DNA from: Octopus vulgaris
Taxonomy: Eukaryota
Direction: 5' to 3'
NCBI GenBank assembly: GCA_951406725.2
Contig: OX597832.1
Span: 60,202,001-60,266,000 of the forward strand
DNA length: 64,000 bases
A program made the position numbers and the translations under genes. Below, in pieces: positions 1,298-61,150 of the stretch (position 1 is its first letter; every line of letters begins with the position of its first letter). The notes beneath the pieces are model-generated. The model worked only from the letters and a program-made list of their open reading frames with translations, made no database searches and was not told the DNA's origin.

Positions 1298-2823
1298 TGT
1301 TTCTTTATTAGCCACACAGGGCTGCACACAGATAGAACAAATTACAAGGTAGAGCTTTTCTTTTGGGGGTAAAAAAAAGGGGGGGGCGATCAAAAGGTAT
1401 CGTAAAAGGAAATTGATCAATAGGGATCGTTATCACAGAAATGTCAATATGAAGTGTAAAGGGGAGGACAGGTGAGGTTTACCCGTGGAAAGAAAAGCCT
1501 ACGGAAAAGACCACGGTAACCTCGGTCAATAAAGTCACATGTTATATTTCTTTTTTTTTTTTTTTTTTGCAAATAAGCAACTCTCTGTATTAATTTTTAC
1601 GGTTCATAGAATCATAGTCAAGGTGGCTTCGTCATTCATACGTGCCATTCTTGCTACATTCACCCATCTTTTTTTAAAACATTCACTAGACAAAACCTGC
1701 CTCTCTACTCTCACTTTCCTCTTCAAGTGATACTTGAAGAAGTTGATGAGAGATTGACCAGAGAGGAAAGTGTTTGTCTCTAATCCTTTCAGGCGCGTCC
1801 ACCAGATACATTCTTTCGCCATAGCCACAAGTATGATAAAAATAGCTCTTCCTTCCCGTTTGAAGGAAGGAGGCGTGACGATATTAACGATAGACTCGGC
1901 TGATAAACCGACACGTCCCACACGTGACAGCAGTCGTTCGAGACAAGCCCACAGGTCGGAGATTGTTGGACACTGCACGATTGCGTGCAGAACGGTTTCG
2001 TCGCTCTGCCCGCATCTCGGGCAGGTCGGCCCCGTGTTTCTCGAGCCATGCCTATAGAGCTTATCCCGAACGGGTAGCGCTTCTCGGTAGCACCGCCAGG
2101 CCAGGGATCTCTGGAAGTTGTCCATAGGTCCCGGCCCGAAAGTCGTCTCAGACAGGCGGGTCAGGTATTCCTCGTCGACGCCCAGGTTTGCCCCAAGTTC
2201 GTCGTCGTACCTCCCCTCCACTAATCCCCTATAGAATGCTTTGGTCGCGTTGAAGTCACTCAAGGTCGACCCAGGACGGCAGAGTTGCTTGAGAACAACG
2301 CGACACTCGCGGTGCCATTCGCCCTTCCTCGGCCTCTTTTTGATCCACGACTGCAGTTCGGTCAGGGAGACGAGCTGCGGGAACGCGTGCCTCACAAACG
2401 GCAACCACACCTGTTCACCGTCGTCTACATAGAGCCGGAGATGTCGCAGTCTTAGCGTGTGTCTGCGCATCATCAACCATAGCATACCCAGCCCTCCTTT
2501 TAACGGGTGTTGACAGCAAATGGATCGCCTGACCATCGGGACGCATCCTTTCCACAAGAAGCGGAAGAGAATGCGTTCTAGTTTGGTGATGGAAGGGTCA
2601 GGACAAGGTACGACGGTCAGGCGGTAGTAGATGATGGACGCGATGTACGTGTTCGCCACCTCCGCCCGACCTTTTAGGGACAGTTTCCTCTCGGCCCATT
2701 GCTGGGTGAGAGTGACCACCCTACTCGTTATCTCGTTCCAGTTCTTCTCCATTTGGAGGTCCGGACCTAACCAGACCCCGAGCAACTCAACCGGGCCGTC
2801 CGTCCAGCGTCCCACGACTGAGG

Positions 2824-2824
<1 letters not shown>
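1298..2824 (-). mobile_element. 5'-truncated Tx1-like (L1 clade) non-LTR retrotransposon inserted in (TATC)n
   Basis: ORF2 C-terminal part plus ~300-bp 3'UTR ending ...GTGGCTAATAAAGAAACA|TATCTATC; flanked on both sides by (GATA)n; homologous 3' ends at 58608 and 59238. Confidence 0.88.
1604..2824 (-). CDS. Tx1-like ORF2 C-terminal fragment (RT thumb region + zf-RVT CCHC), stop-free for ~405 codons
   Basis: Motifs LLGVWLG, W[16 protein letters not shown], [29 protein letters not shown]-x(7)-VLHAIVQC typical of L1/Tx1 ORF2. Confidence 0.85.
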
Positions 2825-2906
<82 letters not shown>

Positions 2907-2927
2907 GTTGGTAGGTAGGTAGGTAGG

Positions 2928-3012
<85 letters not shown>
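2825..3012. repeat. (GATA)n/(GGTA)n microsatellite
   Basis: Direct reading. Confidence 0.95.
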
Positions 3013-3395
3013 CTGCAACCCAAACTAAGGCACTAGTAATAAGTAGCAATTTGCCTTCGCCTTTCATTAAAATCTCAAAAATTGTATTTTTACTAAACAT
3101 TTAATTAGTGAGTATGAAATGTTAACCATTTGTTACTCTATGCCATACACAAATCTCCTTGTGTTTAGGAATGTGTAAGAAACTTTCGAAACAAAAGAAA
3201 CTAGTCTTATTGGTATCTTCATTTAAAGACAAAGAACAAAAGACCTGTGGTTAAGTCATGTTCTATAACTTTTCATAGCAGAGCTAAAAGCATGTTTATT
3301 TGCAAAGAAGCATACACATACACACATAGGGACACGCTACTATTTGTGTCTTTCTATGTGTATGTGTTTATATATATGTTATAAATTAGAACTCC

Positions 3396-3615: not shown

Positions 3616-3934
3616 TTGTATTTATGTGCCCATCTGGTATATTCAACTGACGAAGGCAGTGCTTATTTGAAGCAAAGTCAGAAATCCAGGATCTTGAATT
3701 ATCCAGTAAAATCTTTTTTTGCTAGTTAATTTTGTCTCTCTGTCTTATCTCATGGCGGGATATGAACATTTTAGGTGGTTTTTAGGGTTTTCACTGCTAT
3801 TTCGGCATGGTGATATCTCCCAGATACACTTATTTATAGTTTTAAATTATTATTACCTTTGTATGGTATTTATTCCCATGCTGGCAACTTGATAAGATCG
3901 ATACCTTATCGATATTATCCTTATTTATAAATAA

Positions 3935-4230: not shown

Positions 4231-4485
<255 letters not shown>

Positions 4486-4489
4486 AAAT

Positions 4490-4785
4490 AATAATATTAA
4501 GGAATGGCCTTAATAGGCCATTCAACTCACTAAAACGAGCAGCCAAACTCAAACCGCTAAATAGTAGTAATTCAGAAATCAAAGGAAAATTAAAAACATT
4601 TACCCTTATCATCTCTGGACTATGCATAGTTTCAACGTACATTTTGGCAAACCAGCCTAATTAAATTAAATTTAATTTAATCAAGTCAATTTACCACTGG
4701 CCCGTCTCATCGGCAAAGAAGCCAGGAGGAATATATATTCCACGAGGCAACAGCATCTATGCCTTAGGAATATATACTCTTATAT
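4490..4785 (-). mobile_element. PLE-like/retrozyme-like element related to the 27.8-28.3 kb element
   Basis: Contains HHR at 4612-4719 followed on - strand by GGTAAATGTTTTTA as at 28151; abuts (TA)n. Confidence 0.6.
4612..4719 (-). ncRNA. Type I hammerhead ribozyme with long stem II extension; core U4C variant
   Basis: RC: TCTTTG-CCGATGA-GACG-[~50-nt hairpin GGTAAA...TTTGCC]-CGTT-GAAA-CTATGCATAG-TC-CAGAGA; palindromic stem III ACTATGCATAGT. Confidence 0.65.
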
Positions 4786-5433: not shown

Positions 5434-6870
5434 GTGAAGCTGATGGTAGCGATAGCAATTGTGGTAGCAGTGGTGGTAGCAGTGGGGGGGGCGACGGCAG
5501 CAGTGGTGGTGACAGCAGCAGTGCTGGCGACGGCAGCAGTGGTGGCGACGTCAGCAGTGGTGGCGACGGCAGCAGTGGTGGCGACATCAGCAGTGGTGGC
5601 GACGGCAGCAGTGGTGGCGAAGTCAGCAGTGGTGGCGACGGCAGCAGTGGTGGCGACGGCAACAGTGGTGGCGGCGGCAGCAGTGGTTGCGATGGCAGCA
5701 GTGGTGGCGACGGTAGCAGTAATGGCGGCGGCAGCAGTGGTGGCGACGGCAGCAGTGGTGTCGACGGCAGCAGTGGTGGCGACGTCAGCAGTGGTGGCGA
5801 CGGCAGCAGTGGTGGCGACGTCAGCAGTGGTGGCGACGTCAGCAGTGGTGGCGACGGCAGCAGTGGTGGCGACGGCAGCAGTGGTGGCGAAGTCAGCAGT
5901 GGTGGCAACGGCAGCAGTGGTGACGACGGCAATAGTGGTGGCGGCGGCAGCAGTGGTGGCGACGGCAGCAGTGGTGGCGACGGCAGCAGTGGTGGCGACG
6001 TCAGCAGTGGTGTCGACGGCAGCAGTGGTGGTGACGTCAGCAGTGGTGTCGACGGCAGCAGTGGTGGCGACGTCAGCAGTGGTGGCGACATCAGCAGTGG
6101 TGGCGACGGCAGCAGTGGTGGCGACGGCAGCAGTGGTGGCGAAGTCAGCAGTGGTGGCAACGGCAGCAGTGGTGGCGACGGCAATAGTGGTGGCGGCGGC
6201 AGCAGTGGTGGCGACGGCAGCAGTGGTGGCGACGGCAGCAGTAATGGCGGCGGCAGCAGTGGTGGCGACGGCAGCAGTGGTGGCGACGGCAGCAGTGGTG
6301 GCGACGTCAGCAGTGGTGGCGACGGCAGCAGTGGTGGCGACGTCAGCAGTGGTGGCGACGGCAGGAGTGGTGGCGACAGCAGTAGTAGTGGCGACAGCAG
6401 CAGTGGTGGCGACAGCAGCAGTGGTGGCGACGGCAGCAGTGGTGGCGACGGCAGCAGTGGTGGCGACAGCAGTAGTAGTGGCGACAGCAGTAGTAGTGGC
6501 GAGAGCAGTAGTAGTGGCGAGAGCAGTAGTAGTGGCGACTGCAGCAGTGGTGGCGACGGCAGCAGTGGTGGCGACGGCAGCAGTGGTGGCGACGGCAGCA
6601 GTGGTGGCGACAGCAGTAGTAGTGGCGACAGCAGTAGTAGTGGCGAGAGCAGTAGTAGTGGCGAGAGCAGTAGTAGTGGCGACAGCAGCAGTGGTGGCGA
6701 CGGCAGCAGTGGTGGCGACGGCAGCAGTGGTGGCGACGGCAGCAGTGGTGGCGACGGCAGTAGTAGTGGCGACAGCAGTAGTAGTGGCGAGAGCAGTAGT
6801 AGTGGCGAGAGCAGTAGTAGTGGCGACAGCAGCAGTGGTGGCAACATCAGCAGTGGTGGCGACAGCAGTT
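5434..6870. repeat. GC-rich 18-bp minisatellite, unit GCAGCAGTGGTGGCGACG (~75 copies with variants)
   Basis: Direct reading; translates as VVATAA, PSPPLL or GSSGGD repeats depending on frame. Confidence 0.92.
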
Positions 6871-13000: not shown

Positions 13001-13029
13001 GGACAGTATTTATATTGAAAAATATGTAA

Positions 13030-13560
13030 GCACTACAAAATTAAGACATGACAGAGTTGGCCAATATCTACACTGGCTAATAAGTCGGCATTACAATATC
13101 AAAACTGCCGACAAGTGGTATAATCACCACCCTGAAGCTGTAACTGAAGGAGAAAATGTAACGATTCTGTGGGACTTTCCAGTACATACAGACCGAACCA
13201 TCAAAGCCAATAAACTGGATATTGTTGTGAAAGACAAAAACAATAAAGTGTGCTTATTGATCGACATGAGCATCCCCTGTGATCATAATATCTCGGCGAA
13301 AGAGTTTGACAAGCTCAGAAAATATAAAGACCTGCTCATTGAAATTGAGAAAATGTGGCATCTCAAGGCGGTTACAATATCAGTGATCGTAGGAGCACTA
13401 GGAATGATCAAGAAGGGAACCGAAAACTATATGAGAATGATCCCTGGCTTACCATCCCTGCAAGAAGTGTAAAAGATTGACTTAACTGGTCCATCACACG
13501 TATTGAGAAGAGCATTATCGATGTGAGAACTATTACTACCCATGTGTTTTAATTTAACTT
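13030..13560 (+). pseudogene. R4/Dong-like non-LTR retrotransposon C-terminal restriction-like endonuclease fragment
   Basis: RHDRVGQYLHW...ILWDFPVHTDRTIKANKLDIVVKD...LLIDMSIP...KLRKYKDL...VIVGALG; premature stop at 13470. Confidence 0.85.
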
Positions 13561-16186: not shown

Positions 16187-16397
16187 CATGATTGATCGCT
16201 AGCCACTAAACCGTGTTTTATTTTATGTTTGTTTCTGTTGAATTATTTCTGTTTATTTCTGTGTTTATTTCTGTTGAAGAGCGTAGGCTCGAAACGTGAA
16301 AGACTTTCTCACTTCCCGAGCGTCAAACTAATACATCTTTTGTTGTTTACACACCCGTTTTCGTCTTTTGTTCCGTTTGTTTTTTTTTGTAAATTCC

Positions 16398-27346: not shown

Positions 27347-27824
27347 CGATGATGATGAGAAGGAAGAGCGGGAGAAGGAATGATGATGATGATAATGAGG
27401 AGAAGGAATTAATTTGCCACAGGGTCATTAGATGTAGGTGACATTTCGAGGACAGTAAACAATTCGTGGGGAAGGTTTACATAAAAGTATGAGGCGAAGA
27501 ATGGGGTAGGATAGACAGGTAAATAAAACAAAAACTATCCATGCCCCATCGCCTGTCACGCGGGAAACCAAGTTTCGATTACACGCCGGGGAGGCGTTAG
27601 TATACATGAGAGCACGTACGGCAGTATGAATAGAATATTGGTTTCCAACCACACGGTTGCATGTTCAGTCCTGCTGCGTTGCAATTTGGGAAAGTGTGTT
27701 CTACTATAGACCAAAGCCTTGTGACTGGATTTGGAAGACGGAAACTGAAAGAAGCCTGTCGTGCATATATATATATATATATATATATGAATAATATATA
27801 TATATATATATATGAATAATATAT

Positions 27825-28275
27825 AGTCTATTGACTAAATTTTTTGCGCTAAGCCACTGGTAATAAAAAAATTTCTATAATTCTTATTACCCTAATATTA
27901 TTTCTTATGTTTAAATGATTTTTGATAAATTTGTTCGAGGTTTTACCGGCATCCTCTCTGTTGCCGAAAATAGACTGCGACTGTGCAGTGGATTTGAAAA
28001 GTTAGAATATACAAACAATGAGTTTGCATGCGGAATCGATTCGTTGTATGTATATTTAAAATCTAAGGCTACCCACTGATGAAGACGGCCTCAGTAAATC
28101 TGTTTTTACTGAAATAAGTCAGAAACCATGGTCTGGGAATTAAATTAGATGGTAAATGTTTTTACTTTTCATTCCCTTCGAGAATTTATCCCTAATTAGT
28201 GGCTTGAATTTATAACTGTTCTTTCTAGCGCAAGGTTTTCCTATGATGGAAGCCTCTTAATAAGTTTTAATGTAC
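27825..28275 (+). mobile_element. PLE-like/retrozyme-like element in (TA)n carrying hammerhead ribozyme
   Basis: Unique ~450 bp between (TA)n tracts; HHR at 28061-28150. Confidence 0.65.
28061..28150 (+). ncRNA. Type I hammerhead ribozyme (predicted cleavage after GUC, C28133)
   Basis: Stem I CCCA(28072-75)/TGGG(28134-37) plus ATCTAA/TTAGAT; CTGATGA 28076-82; stem II GAC/GTC with inner TCAGTAAA/TTTACTGA; GAAA 28122-25; palindromic stem III ACCATGGT. Confidence 0.8.
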
Positions 28276-28283
28276 ACGATTAT

Positions 28284-28348
<65 letters not shown>

Positions 28349-28874
28349 TTTGTGTGCATATGTATATATATATTTATGCGAGTACGTCTGTGTTCGTGTC
28401 TGTCCCCCACCAAAGCTTGACAACCTGTGTTGGCTTGTTTACGTCCCCGTCACTTAGCAATTCTGCAAAAAGAATAGAGCAATGTGCTGGAGCCGATTTG
28501 TTCGACTAAATCTTGGAAGGCGGTGCCCCAGCATGGCCGCGGCACATTGACTGAAGCGGCTAAAAGGAAAAAAAGGATTTTAAGTTAACACATGACCGAT
28601 GCAGTTCATCCTCATGAATGAAAGCTTCGAAATAGGGCCCATCAAGAAACCCCACAGATCAAGGGTCCAAACGGCACAAACCTTCGCCCAATCGTCCTCC
28701 GATATGCAGACACATGTTTAGGGTAGTTTCATTCGTTCTAACACCTTTTTTTCCACAGTCATCCACCACCTTTTTGATCAATTCACTGGGGAGGGGACAC
28801 TTTCCTTTCCATGGCCGTCACTCATCCTCTTCTGCCTTAGTTACTGGACAGACCAACACCGCTTTTAATGATAA

Positions 28875-29267: not shown

Positions 29268-30210
29268 TCCTTTTTCTATTATAGGCACACAGCCTGAAAT
29301 TTGGAGAGGGGGGGGTCAGTCGATTACATCCCACCCACGACGCAATTGGTACTTAATTTATCGACCCCGAAAGGATGAAAGGCAAGCTCGACCTCGGTGG
29401 AATTTAAACTCAGAACATAAAGACATACAAAATACCTATTTCTTTACTGCCCACAAGAGGCTAAACATAGAGTGGACAAACAAGGACAGACAAACCGATT
29501 AAGTAGATTATATCGACCCCAGTGCGTAACTGGTACCTTATTTATCGACCCCGAAAGGATGAAAGGCAAAGTCAACCTCGGCGGAATTTGAACTCAGAAC
29601 GTAACGGCAGAAAAATACCGCTAAGCATTTCGCCCGACGTGCTAACGTTTCTTATTTCTTTATTGCCCACAAGGAGATAAACACAGAAGGGACAAACAAG
29701 GACAGAAAAACGGATTAAGTCGATTAAATCGACCCCAGTGCGTAACTGGTCCTTAATTTATCAACCCCGAAAGGATGAAAGGCAAAGTCGACCCCGGCGG
29801 AATTTGAACTCAGAACGTAGCCGCAGACGAAATACTGCTAAGCATTTCTACCAGCTCCCCGCCTTAACAACGGCAGTAATCTTTTCTGCTCAAGGCACAA
29901 GTCCCGAAATTTGTTGGGTGGAGGCCAGTCGATTAGATCGACCCCACTACGCAACTGGTACTTAATTTATCGACCAACGAAAGGATGAAAGGTAAAGTCG
30001 ACCTCGGCGGAATTTGAACTCAGAACATAAAGACAGACGAAATATCGCTCAGCATTTCGCACGGCGCACTAACGATTCTGCCAGCTCGACACCTTGACCG
30101 AATGTAATATTCTTTTTTATTCTTGGCACAAGGCCCGAAATGTGGAGGGTTGTTGGCCAGTCGATTAGATCGACCCTATTACGCAACGATTCTGCCAGCT
30201 CAACGCCTAA
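29268..30210 (-). mobile_element. Cluster/tandem array of about 5 SINE family A units, two with Tx1-like tails
   Basis: Repeated B boxes and Meta-like domains; junctions at 29436/37 and ~29652/53. Confidence 0.85.
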
Positions 30211-34162: not shown

Positions 34163-34495
34163 AAATGAGGTTTAAAATTTACTACAGCTGTTTCGAGAGG
34201 TTTTTATTGATGGTTTCACAGATTACACTAGTGCATAAATCCAGTATCGTCACGAAAATTTTAAACCGGTATAAAGAGACTCGATAAAAAATAACCTGAT
34301 GATCATCTATCCAACAATCGCCATGATGAGTAAACGTTGTTTGTAGGATATGTCATCATCAAGGTTTATCCTTGCTGGTTTATAACCTGTCCAAAAAATT
34401 TACCTGACGATGGTGGATTTATGCTATGATGTAATCTATAAAGGCGTCAATAAAATTTTACCGAAACAGATGTAGTAAATGTTGAACCCCATTTT
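34163..34495. mobile_element. Imperfect ~330-bp palindromic element with hammerhead motifs in both arms (opposite strands)
   Basis: Left arm 34163-~34316 is the reverse complement of right arm ~34340-34495. Confidence 0.75.
34399..34479 (+). ncRNA. Type I hammerhead ribozyme (predicted cleavage after GUA, A34474)
   Basis: TTTAC-CTGACGA(34404-10)-T-GGT...ACC-GAAA(34463-66)-CAGATG-TA-GTAAA; mirror arm shows palindromic stem III ACAGCTGT. Confidence 0.65.
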
Positions 34496-60344: not shown

Positions 60345-61150
60345 TTGCTACAATGTGAATATTTGATATTTAGTGAACATGCCCTTTGCATTTTTCAATG
60401 TAAGGGCCCTATTAGGCATGTTACTGATCAGATGATGAATATTCTCTTGCGGAATTTCTTGCCAAGTTTCATGCATCTCAAAAGATCTGGTTTTGAAGAT
60501 GCTTTCTTGTTCTTTTTATGTTCCAGAGGTGTTCAATGAGGTTCATATTTGGTGACTAGCTTGGCCATGGAAGCTTTTTAATGCCATCCTCATCCAACAA
60601 ATCTTGAGTCATTTAACCCGTTTGACAAGGTGCCCAATCTTCCATAAATAAAGAGTCCTCTTTAATCCATTTCACCACTGGAGAAGATTGGAGGGAGTCC
60701 ATTCTGCAATATGGACACATATTTATCTGAGTTTATGTTTCCTTCACACTCCACCAGCTCTGACCAACCATTGCTCCAAATTGCTCCCCAGACCATCACA
60801 GAAAAGCTGCCGTGTTTCGTTGTTGGCTGCAATCTTTTCACATCAAATTTTTGATCACTGAGTCTCCAGACCCACACGCGGCCGCTGTCAGAAAATACTG
60901 CAAATCTGGACTCATCAGAGAATATGACAGTGTCCCAAAATGCTAGTGGCCTCTCCACCATCTCACTGGCCCAATCTTTCCTGCCTGGTCGAAGAAGTGG
61001 TTTCCTTCTTGCTGCTCAGTGTCCCAAAATGCTAGTGGCCTCTCCACCATCTCACTAGCCCAATCTTTTCTGCCTGGTCGAAGAAGTGGTTTCCTTCTTG
61101 CTGCTCTGCCATAGTAACCGAGTTTGTGGAGATACTGGCTCATTGTATTC
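60345..61150 (-). pseudogene. Tc1-family DDE transposase pseudogene
   Basis: [47 protein letters not shown], and degenerate WPS*SPNMNLIEHLW; stops, frameshifts and an 89-bp internal duplication. Confidence 0.88.

Follow-up and report, generated by a model that had tools for sequence, protein, structure and literature searches.

The stretch of the Octopus vulgaris genome analysed here, 64,000 nucleotides in length and referred to below as the window, contains a non-coding element that carries a type I hammerhead motif, with its core at positions 28076-28133. The element is inserted in the microsatellite of a short repeat, and its parts and surroundings are as follows.

27586-27764 (+): left half of the short host repeat, judged SINE-like by eye.
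27765-27810 (no strand): left (TA)n target; a 25-bp local duplication extends into the unit.
27811-28281 (+): one non-coding retrozyme unit of ~471 bp, which ends at the family's 3' site A and starts within the preceding unit's AT-rich site-A region.
27846-27901 (+): "tail" region, where a long-range helix has its 3' arms; it also contains a hairpin (27859-27891) and, at ~27900, site B, the second 3' end of the family.
28061-28066 (+): 5' strand of distal stem I, ATCTAA, which pairs with 28145-28150 (93.6% of cells paired, with little variation).
28072-28075 (+): 5' strand of proximal stem I, CCCA, which pairs with 28134-28137 and covaries between sub-lineages (UA41/CG13 and GC36/AU15).
28076-28082 (+): hammerhead core CUGAUGA (C3-A9; CTGATGA in DNA), located by sequence and by a type I scan.
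28083-28121 (+): stem II, with an A10.1·A11.1 mismatch, a 3-bp helix, an internal loop and an 8-bp distal hairpin (CG25/UA25 and UA31/CG20).
28122-28133 (+): GAAA (at 28122), palindromic stem III and the predicted cleavage position after C28133.
28134-28150 (+): 3' strands of stem I and internal loop (TGGG at 28134, TTAGAT at 28145).
28152-28228 (+): candidate 77-nt intron with a GT donor, CTAAT at 28192 and a YAG acceptor, its ends conserved.
28198-28231 (+): 5' arms of the long-range helix, which pair over the unit junction with 27846-27858.
28282-28377 (no strand): right (TA)n / TA-GT microsatellite target.
28378-28575 (+): right half of the host short repeat.

The core segments CUGANGA, GAAA and NUH occur in the order of a type I hammerhead; stem I is open here, and stems II and III are both closed. 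Stem I has a 4-bp proximal and a 6-bp distal part, stem III is the 8-nt palindrome ACCATGGT (28125-28132), and the cleavage triplet GUC ends at C28133. The initial annotation had described an intact core, a two-part stem I and a palindromic stem III, and each of these was recovered where it had been placed. The branched stem II of that description is instead a single interrupted hairpin with no multi-way branch, in which GAC at 28084 and GTC at 28118 form the 3-bp helix. "Intact" applies to the CUGAUGA/GAAA/GUC segments but not to positions 10.1 and 11.1, where the window copy, like the rest of its lineage, has A·A in place of a Watson-Crick pair, usually G-C. A strict type I scan of the window gave two matches, at 28076 and 3647, while 20 shuffles of the window gave two in total, none of them with a palindromic stem III. 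The folding energy of the 101-nt motif is no better than that of shuffles (z -0.50) and the Rfam hammerhead models matched it neither at the gathering score nor at E<=10; hence, the evidence for a hammerhead is the covariation among its copies.

The element is non-coding and flanked by (TA)n as first annotated, although its unit measures ~471 bp and not ~450 bp. Natural head-to-tail junctions define units of 456-477 bp that contain no ORF, each a few hundred base pairs long, low in GC and with one type I hammerhead, as in retrozymes. Its reported position inside the internal (TA)n of a SINE holds with regard to the insertion: the host short repeat is split at its own microsatellite, with halves 612 bp apart here versus 7-115 bp in 23 of 27 left/right pairs (taken from the window and the other loci, with halves separated by simple repeats, and with the window and L001 being the same locus). 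The assignment of this repeat to SINEs was made by eye only, and a target-site duplication is unreadable within (TA)n. A distant sister retrozyme (L070:3760-4420, minus strand), with a ~430-bp unit, a CUCGAG palindrome and the same tail helix and hairpin, has also inserted into the (TA)n of this short repeat.

A first look with the 457 bp enclosed by the (TA)n runs gave 2736 candidates in the octopus genome itself, the best 40 of which are 84-93% identical, and exact motifs set lower bounds on copy number of at least 434 with a 16-mer (control 1) and at least 878 with an 18-mer (control 0). Tandem copies, which the initial annotation had proposed to look for, do exist as head-to-tail units, including two loci with two complete hammerhead cores 470 bp (L115) and 456 bp (L116) apart. 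No long tandem arrays occur among 147 mapped segments, the longest of which reaches 1.9 units. Neither the unit itself nor the sequence leading into units in the loci translated holds an ORF with reverse transcriptase (RT) and GIY-YIG domains.

More than a dozen copies of the motif had been proposed for the window. About 16 CUGANGA-like cores are indeed present, but they belong to several unrelated families and only three fold as complete type I hammerheads. The second complete one (3647-3700, +) lies between (TA)n runs in an unrelated stretch of ~310 bp and has A·A at 10.1-11.1 and a stem III of odd length. Hammerhead-like motifs with a long stem II stand back to back at 34404 (+) and 34253 (-), as in inverted insertions of the type made by Penelope-like elements (PLEs). 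Minimal CUGANGA-A...GAAA-CG-U cores of one family, in which stem II is short and stem I is slight or missing, are found at 16271+, 36719+, 44940-, 45835-, 46016- and 4168-, and CUGAUGA cores with GAAA upstream, not downstream, at 16655-, 40737- and 56737-. Only one other fragment in the window is homologous to the element (~4475-4783, minus strand). It is a 5'-truncated copy of a young sister family (copies 94-97% identical, 2453 candidates) that has a CCGAUGA hammerhead with a 12-nt palindromic stem III and has its downstream tract and tail in common with the family of 27811-28281. Other repeats in the window include a LINE remnant with zf-RVT (1604-3100, -), an 18-bp GC-rich minisatellite of 76 copies (5490-6868), a 216-bp tandem pair of a short repeat (29437-29848), and what we take, by eye and from familiar motifs, to be remnants of a restriction-like endonuclease (13002-13472, +) and of a Tc1-like transposase (60662-61015, +).

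Alignment of copies demonstrates that the hammerhead fold is under selection at the RNA level. Across 57 copies (picked from 34 + 77 rows, with truncated rows and many near-duplicates excluded), 95.3% of the cells in the hammerhead region are paired, compared to 25-40% in slid controls. The copies hold 73 double changes, which represent a few lineage events that are each counted repeatedly, and none of 500 shuffles reached that number. The double changes are located in proximal stem I and distal stem II, and all four combinations of the two stem I pairs are found among the copies. Stem III columns are uninformative for covariation because the search pattern fixed stem III in 39 of the 57 rows. 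Structure is conserved among homologues, with stems I and II both covarying. The long-range helix (28198-28231 with 27846-27858) behaves similarly in the 45 of 92 extracted copies that were used, with 92.8% of cells paired and 38 double changes (0 of 500 shuffles). The entire window unit folds into a rod-like structure, and whole units fold more stably than shuffles (z -3.74 for the window unit and -2.95).

The A·A mismatch characterizes a lineage within a wider family. Among 158 parsed hammerheads, a sample biased by the search patterns toward the lineage of the window copy, 97 have A·A at positions 10.1-11.1, 31 have A-U and 10 have G-C, with A-U and G-C belonging to sister lineages. In 75 A·A copies the inner pairs of stem I still covary (TG/CA 36, TA/TA 19, CG/CG 8), and position 3 is U in 39 of these 75, which gives U3·G8. 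Both A·A at 10.1-11.1 and U3·G8 should lower activity. The stem III palindrome differs between sister families. Loci of the broader superfamily (L211-L377) have G-C, G·U, A-U, A·A or U·U at 10.1-11.1 and stem III loops of 0 to 4 nt, and one lineage has the cleavage triplet GUA.

When two copies are co-folded, they are predicted to form a swapped dimer with an 8-bp intermolecular stem III (-48.2 versus 2 x -18.2 kcal/mol); the palindrome duplex contributes -11.2 kcal/mol, and closing stem III within a monomer gains no energy. The hammerhead is thus predicted to cut only in pairs. The window copy is a single unit, and since it has only one hammerhead, it is probably a dead end that plays no part in the host. 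These results bear on the suggestion of the initial annotation that active copies, if intronic, could cut the host pre-mRNA, and hence on the reading that the host has co-opted the window copy to cut an intronic or other host transcript. Despite the fact that this copy keeps its core, stem I and stem II intact, we consider co-option extremely unlikely, given a lone hammerhead whose stem III is not stabilized as a monomer and the poor cleavage of published dimer-type motifs when alone. In addition, the unit is about 90% identical to its nearest siblings throughout, with no locus-specific conservation, and an ORF scan of the window plus 10 kb on either side, which is a weak test, found no host exon and only repeat-derived frames. 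Parts of the family turn up in contigs from sequencing runs that are guessed to be RNA, but none of these parts spans the window locus; such contigs cannot show ends, strand or circles. Pol III read-through from the upstream short repeat is unlikely, as a T run lies at 27840-27846.

To describe how copies are inserted, 147 segments were mapped in 93 loci, 30 picked by similarity and 63 by position (overlapping loci were excluded and two duplicated loci were retained). The 3' ends are fixed at two places, with 111 of the 147 falling at site A (61) or site B (50), although the site windows make up 18% of the unit. Loci sampled by position display the same pattern (73 of 102 segments). Site A lies ~93 nt upstream of site B, and these two 3' ends are separated from the cut site by ~150 and ~240 nt. 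A (TA)n run comes after 79 of the 3' ends and before 14 of the 5' ends, which are scattered, as in random 5' truncation. Segments longer than one unit are common (41 of 147, or 17 of 102 when sampled by position), with a maximum of 898 bp, and copies pass through the cut site and across the unit junction, leaving no recurrent scar. Neighbouring segments are arranged back to back, with 38 pairs 5'-to-5' versus one 3'-to-3'. One arm ends at A and the other at B in 17 of 19 scorable back-to-back pairs (P 3.6e-4; 32 pairs with L111 and L112 excluded and site windows slightly widened, scorable meaning that both ends fall at A or B). Fixed 3' ends, 5' truncation, partial tandems, inverted partners, a one-sided tail and a microsatellite target together match the PLE layout of truncation, partial tandem, inverted partner, one-end tail and microsatellite bias depicted in Fig. 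2 of Craig et al. 2021 (PMC8557442). The view of the initial annotation that the element belongs to a (TA)n-inserting, PLE-type system of ribozyme retroelements is therefore supported by the 3' ends, the (TA)n and the back-to-back arms in 93 loci.

A genomic footprint of self-cleavage was looked for in the 5' ends. Those of 6 of 83 rows in a mixed sample lie within 2 nt of the cut site (5 independent) versus 1.8 expected from the 60 positions upstream, a weak excess (Poisson P about 0.04, calculated by hand). The main lineage has no pile-up of 5' ends there, with about 3-4 starts versus about 5-6 at a position 4 nt upstream that served as control (62 matches without C at the cut and 24 distinct matches at the control, starts judged by eye; a script flagged 10, including internal deletions). 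The missing footprint speaks for a rival explanation, in which the same element and PLE machinery use a linear read-through template, with copies longer than a unit made by template jumps, no circle, and a hammerhead that is slow or vestigial. This explanation agrees with the distances of the 3' ends from the cut site and with the 10.1-11.1 mismatch, joined by U3·G8 in many copies. Furthermore, Naiad PLEs as described by Craig et al. 2021 (PMC8557442) give the same tandem and inverted layouts without canonical hammerheads. However, stem I still covaries within the A·A lineage, arguing for continued selection on the fold, the crossings of cut site and unit junction lack a recurrent scar, and an active axolotl retrozyme hammerhead described in PMC7229834 tolerates U·U at the same place. 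On balance, we regard a linear template as rather unlikely.

Directly 3' of the hammerhead, the donor-like GGTAAATG at 28151 opens a conserved 77-nt GT...CTAAT...YAG stretch, with a spacing of 73-78 nt across copies. In 237 segments unselected for such signals, conservation is 94-98% in the GT and TAG columns and falls to 32-63% just beyond. No spliced copy was found in the stored loci or, by one pattern, genome-wide, and the contigs contain no GT..AG joint. The ends of this candidate intron also lie in RNA helices, with TAG inside the covarying long-range helix.

The genome encodes enzymes of the expected kind. GIY-YIG matches number 148, of which 16 are within 781-aa frames, in a survey that scored 150 of 6136 PLE candidates. 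Intact PLEs carry RT and GIY-YIG domains, the RT scoring slightly below the Pfam cut-off. The 781-aa PLE has a CX4CxxC linker of the Neptune type, and its family, a young one with two ORFs (L061-L067; e.g., G000:C16:20834000-20843000), has a U3-A8 hammerhead in the terminal repeat. Its two 3' ends are ~40 nt apart and each precedes (TA)n. The hammerhead of this family, whose 781-aa frame holds RT and GIY-YIG, has a CAUG palindrome, and a possible donor/acceptor pair, seen by eye, would put the end of an intron inside hammerhead loop 2. In another PLE family (L068, L073), the 3' UTR holds a hammerhead with U·U at 10.1-11.1 and the core CCGAAGA or CUGAAGA.

The initial annotation called for a search for an autonomous PLE with RT and GIY-YIG that shares this segment. 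None was found among 50 PLE loci, either by BLASTN with three units or with an nhmmer profile of five lineages; the only matches were window copies and the nested sister retrozyme in L034/L070. Three follow-up searches gave further non-coding sister families and no coding partner. Loci L111 and L112, where cores are 3.7 and 2.4 kb apart, were considered as coding elements and ruled out as duplications. Since neither the 781-aa PLE nor the others in the 50 loci share detectable sequence with the unit, it is from the insertion architecture that we infer a PLE as the mobilizing partner.

The units could also be solo or truncated pLTRs left behind by an unsampled autonomous PLE, in which case they would not constitute an independent non-autonomous family. 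The hammerhead, the candidate intron, the tail and the two 3' ends are all features of pLTRs, PLE insertions are mostly 5'-truncated, and the survey sampled PLE diversity in part. Nevertheless, units join head to tail with no intervening ORF at many independent loci and in several lineages, no PLE ORF runs into a unit in the loci translated, and the PLE remnants near copies in L083, L113, L114 and L130 are separate insertions, all of which makes this origin very unlikely.

We therefore favour, as probable, the explanation that the window element is a single-unit copy of a high-copy, non-autonomous non-LTR retrozyme of ~471 bp, which was copied into (TA)n by a PLE acting in trans and whose type I hammerhead should, by prediction, cleave in dimeric form. 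Around the observed insertions, we infer a cycle of transcription, cleavage and circle formation. Rare loci with two hammerheads, such as L115 and L116, would be transcribed; the two hammerheads would pair through the stem III palindrome and excise a unit-length RNA, which would be ligated, probably to a circle. A PLE reverse transcriptase and endonuclease would then nick (TA)n in trans, prime on one strand of the target at site B and on the opposite strand at site A, and copy round the circle over a variable distance, often past one unit. The window copy would be the product of one such arm. Against this explanation count the lack of a sequence-sharing PLE in 50 loci, of arrays longer than 1.9 units and of a cut-site pile-up in the main lineage, along with A·A and U3·G8.

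A more speculative extension, to which we give a less than even chance, is that dimers of the A·A-core hammerhead are active and have driven hundreds of insertions, each consisting of two priming events, at sites A and B of the conserved 3' RNA domain, on two templates or in two passes of one circle. The stem III palindrome could then pair templates family by family. If true, two-site priming would explain the one-sided "tail" of PLE insertions.

Literature searches, which left aside supplements and the work by Lünse et al. 2017 (it treats small variants of PLE hammerheads, possibly with A·A among them), found no published description of this family and nothing on 10.1-11.1 variants. The family is new, but its class, the non-LTR retrozymes, has already been described (PMC4209133; PMC7229834; bioRxiv 10.64898/2026.07.22.740005). 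A squid genome paper counts 235 Rfam hammerheads without further study. Coral, mussel and axolotl are known to have non-LTR retrozymes (Cervera and de la Peña 2020, PMC7229834). As described there and in bioRxiv 10.64898/2026.07.22.740005, metazoan non-LTR retrozymes share with the octopus family a non-coding unit a few hundred bp long, one type I hammerhead, GC below 45%, a self-paired RNA, head-to-tail junctions and co-occurrence with PLEs. Described retrozymes often form multimers (PMC7229834; bioRxiv 10.64898/2026.07.22.740005), whereas octopus copies are dispersed (TA)n insertions of 0.1-1.9 units with back-to-back arms and no long tandem arrays. The octopus unit also lies slightly above the 150-450 bp range given for metazoan retrozymes and has no pLTR homologue among the 50 PLE loci.

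The closest counterpart of the motif in these texts is the axolotl hammerhead HHR_Amex2 of Rtz_353 (PMC7229834), which likewise has a two-pair helix III with a tetraloop cap and a mismatch at the base of helix II. As reported, it is weak as a monomer (22% in 1 h) and efficient as a dimer. Its mismatch is U·U where the octopus motif has A·A, and by analogy this active ribozyme may serve as a precedent. The octopus helix II differs in being extended by an internal loop and an 8-bp hairpin, and no classical loop 1-loop 2 nucleotides were identified. In Xenopus, according to bioRxiv 10.64898/2026.07.22.740005, cleavage was absent in 8 of the 9 predicted retrozyme dimers tested, a further point against the favoured explanation.

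PLE hammerheads with a palindromic helix III are described by Cervera and de la Peña 2014 (PMC4209133) and reviewed in PMC6765202. The octopus motif resembles those of PMC4209133 in its type I topology, short stem I, palindromic stem III, dimer logic and variation of the 3-8 pair, but it lies outside the pLTR of a coding element, and G10.1-C11.1, described there as highly conserved, is A·A. For the D. virilis PLE, the same paper reports an intron near the ribozyme; that intron ends before stem I, whereas the octopus candidate begins after it. Compared to EN+ PLEs of the Neptune/Naiad type as described in PMC8557442, the octopus family displays the same 5' truncation, partial tandems, inverted 5'-truncated partner, one-end tail and (TA)n bias. 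It differs in being non-coding and in its tail of ~93 nt versus the 30-40 bp described, with the tail of the octopus 781-aa PLE being ~40 nt.

As an element, the family is ordinary, one more animal retrozyme. Its use lies in offering many short, protein-free records of Penelope-type insertion, with two fixed priming sites in A+B pairs and a covarying 3' RNA domain, for a mechanism that Craig et al. 2021 (PMC8557442) call unresolved. Sister hammerheads that differ at 10.1-11.1, at 3-8 and in the stem III palindrome likewise form a set that could be compared in a simple cleavage assay. Lastly, Li, Clavereau and Pollet 2026 (bioRxiv 10.64898/2026.07.22.740005) propose that retrozymes derive from PLEs and are non-autonomous. 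The octopus family supports this proposal that animal retrozymes ride on PLE machinery, and does so here, in an invertebrate-type genome, through insertion architecture rather than pLTR homology.
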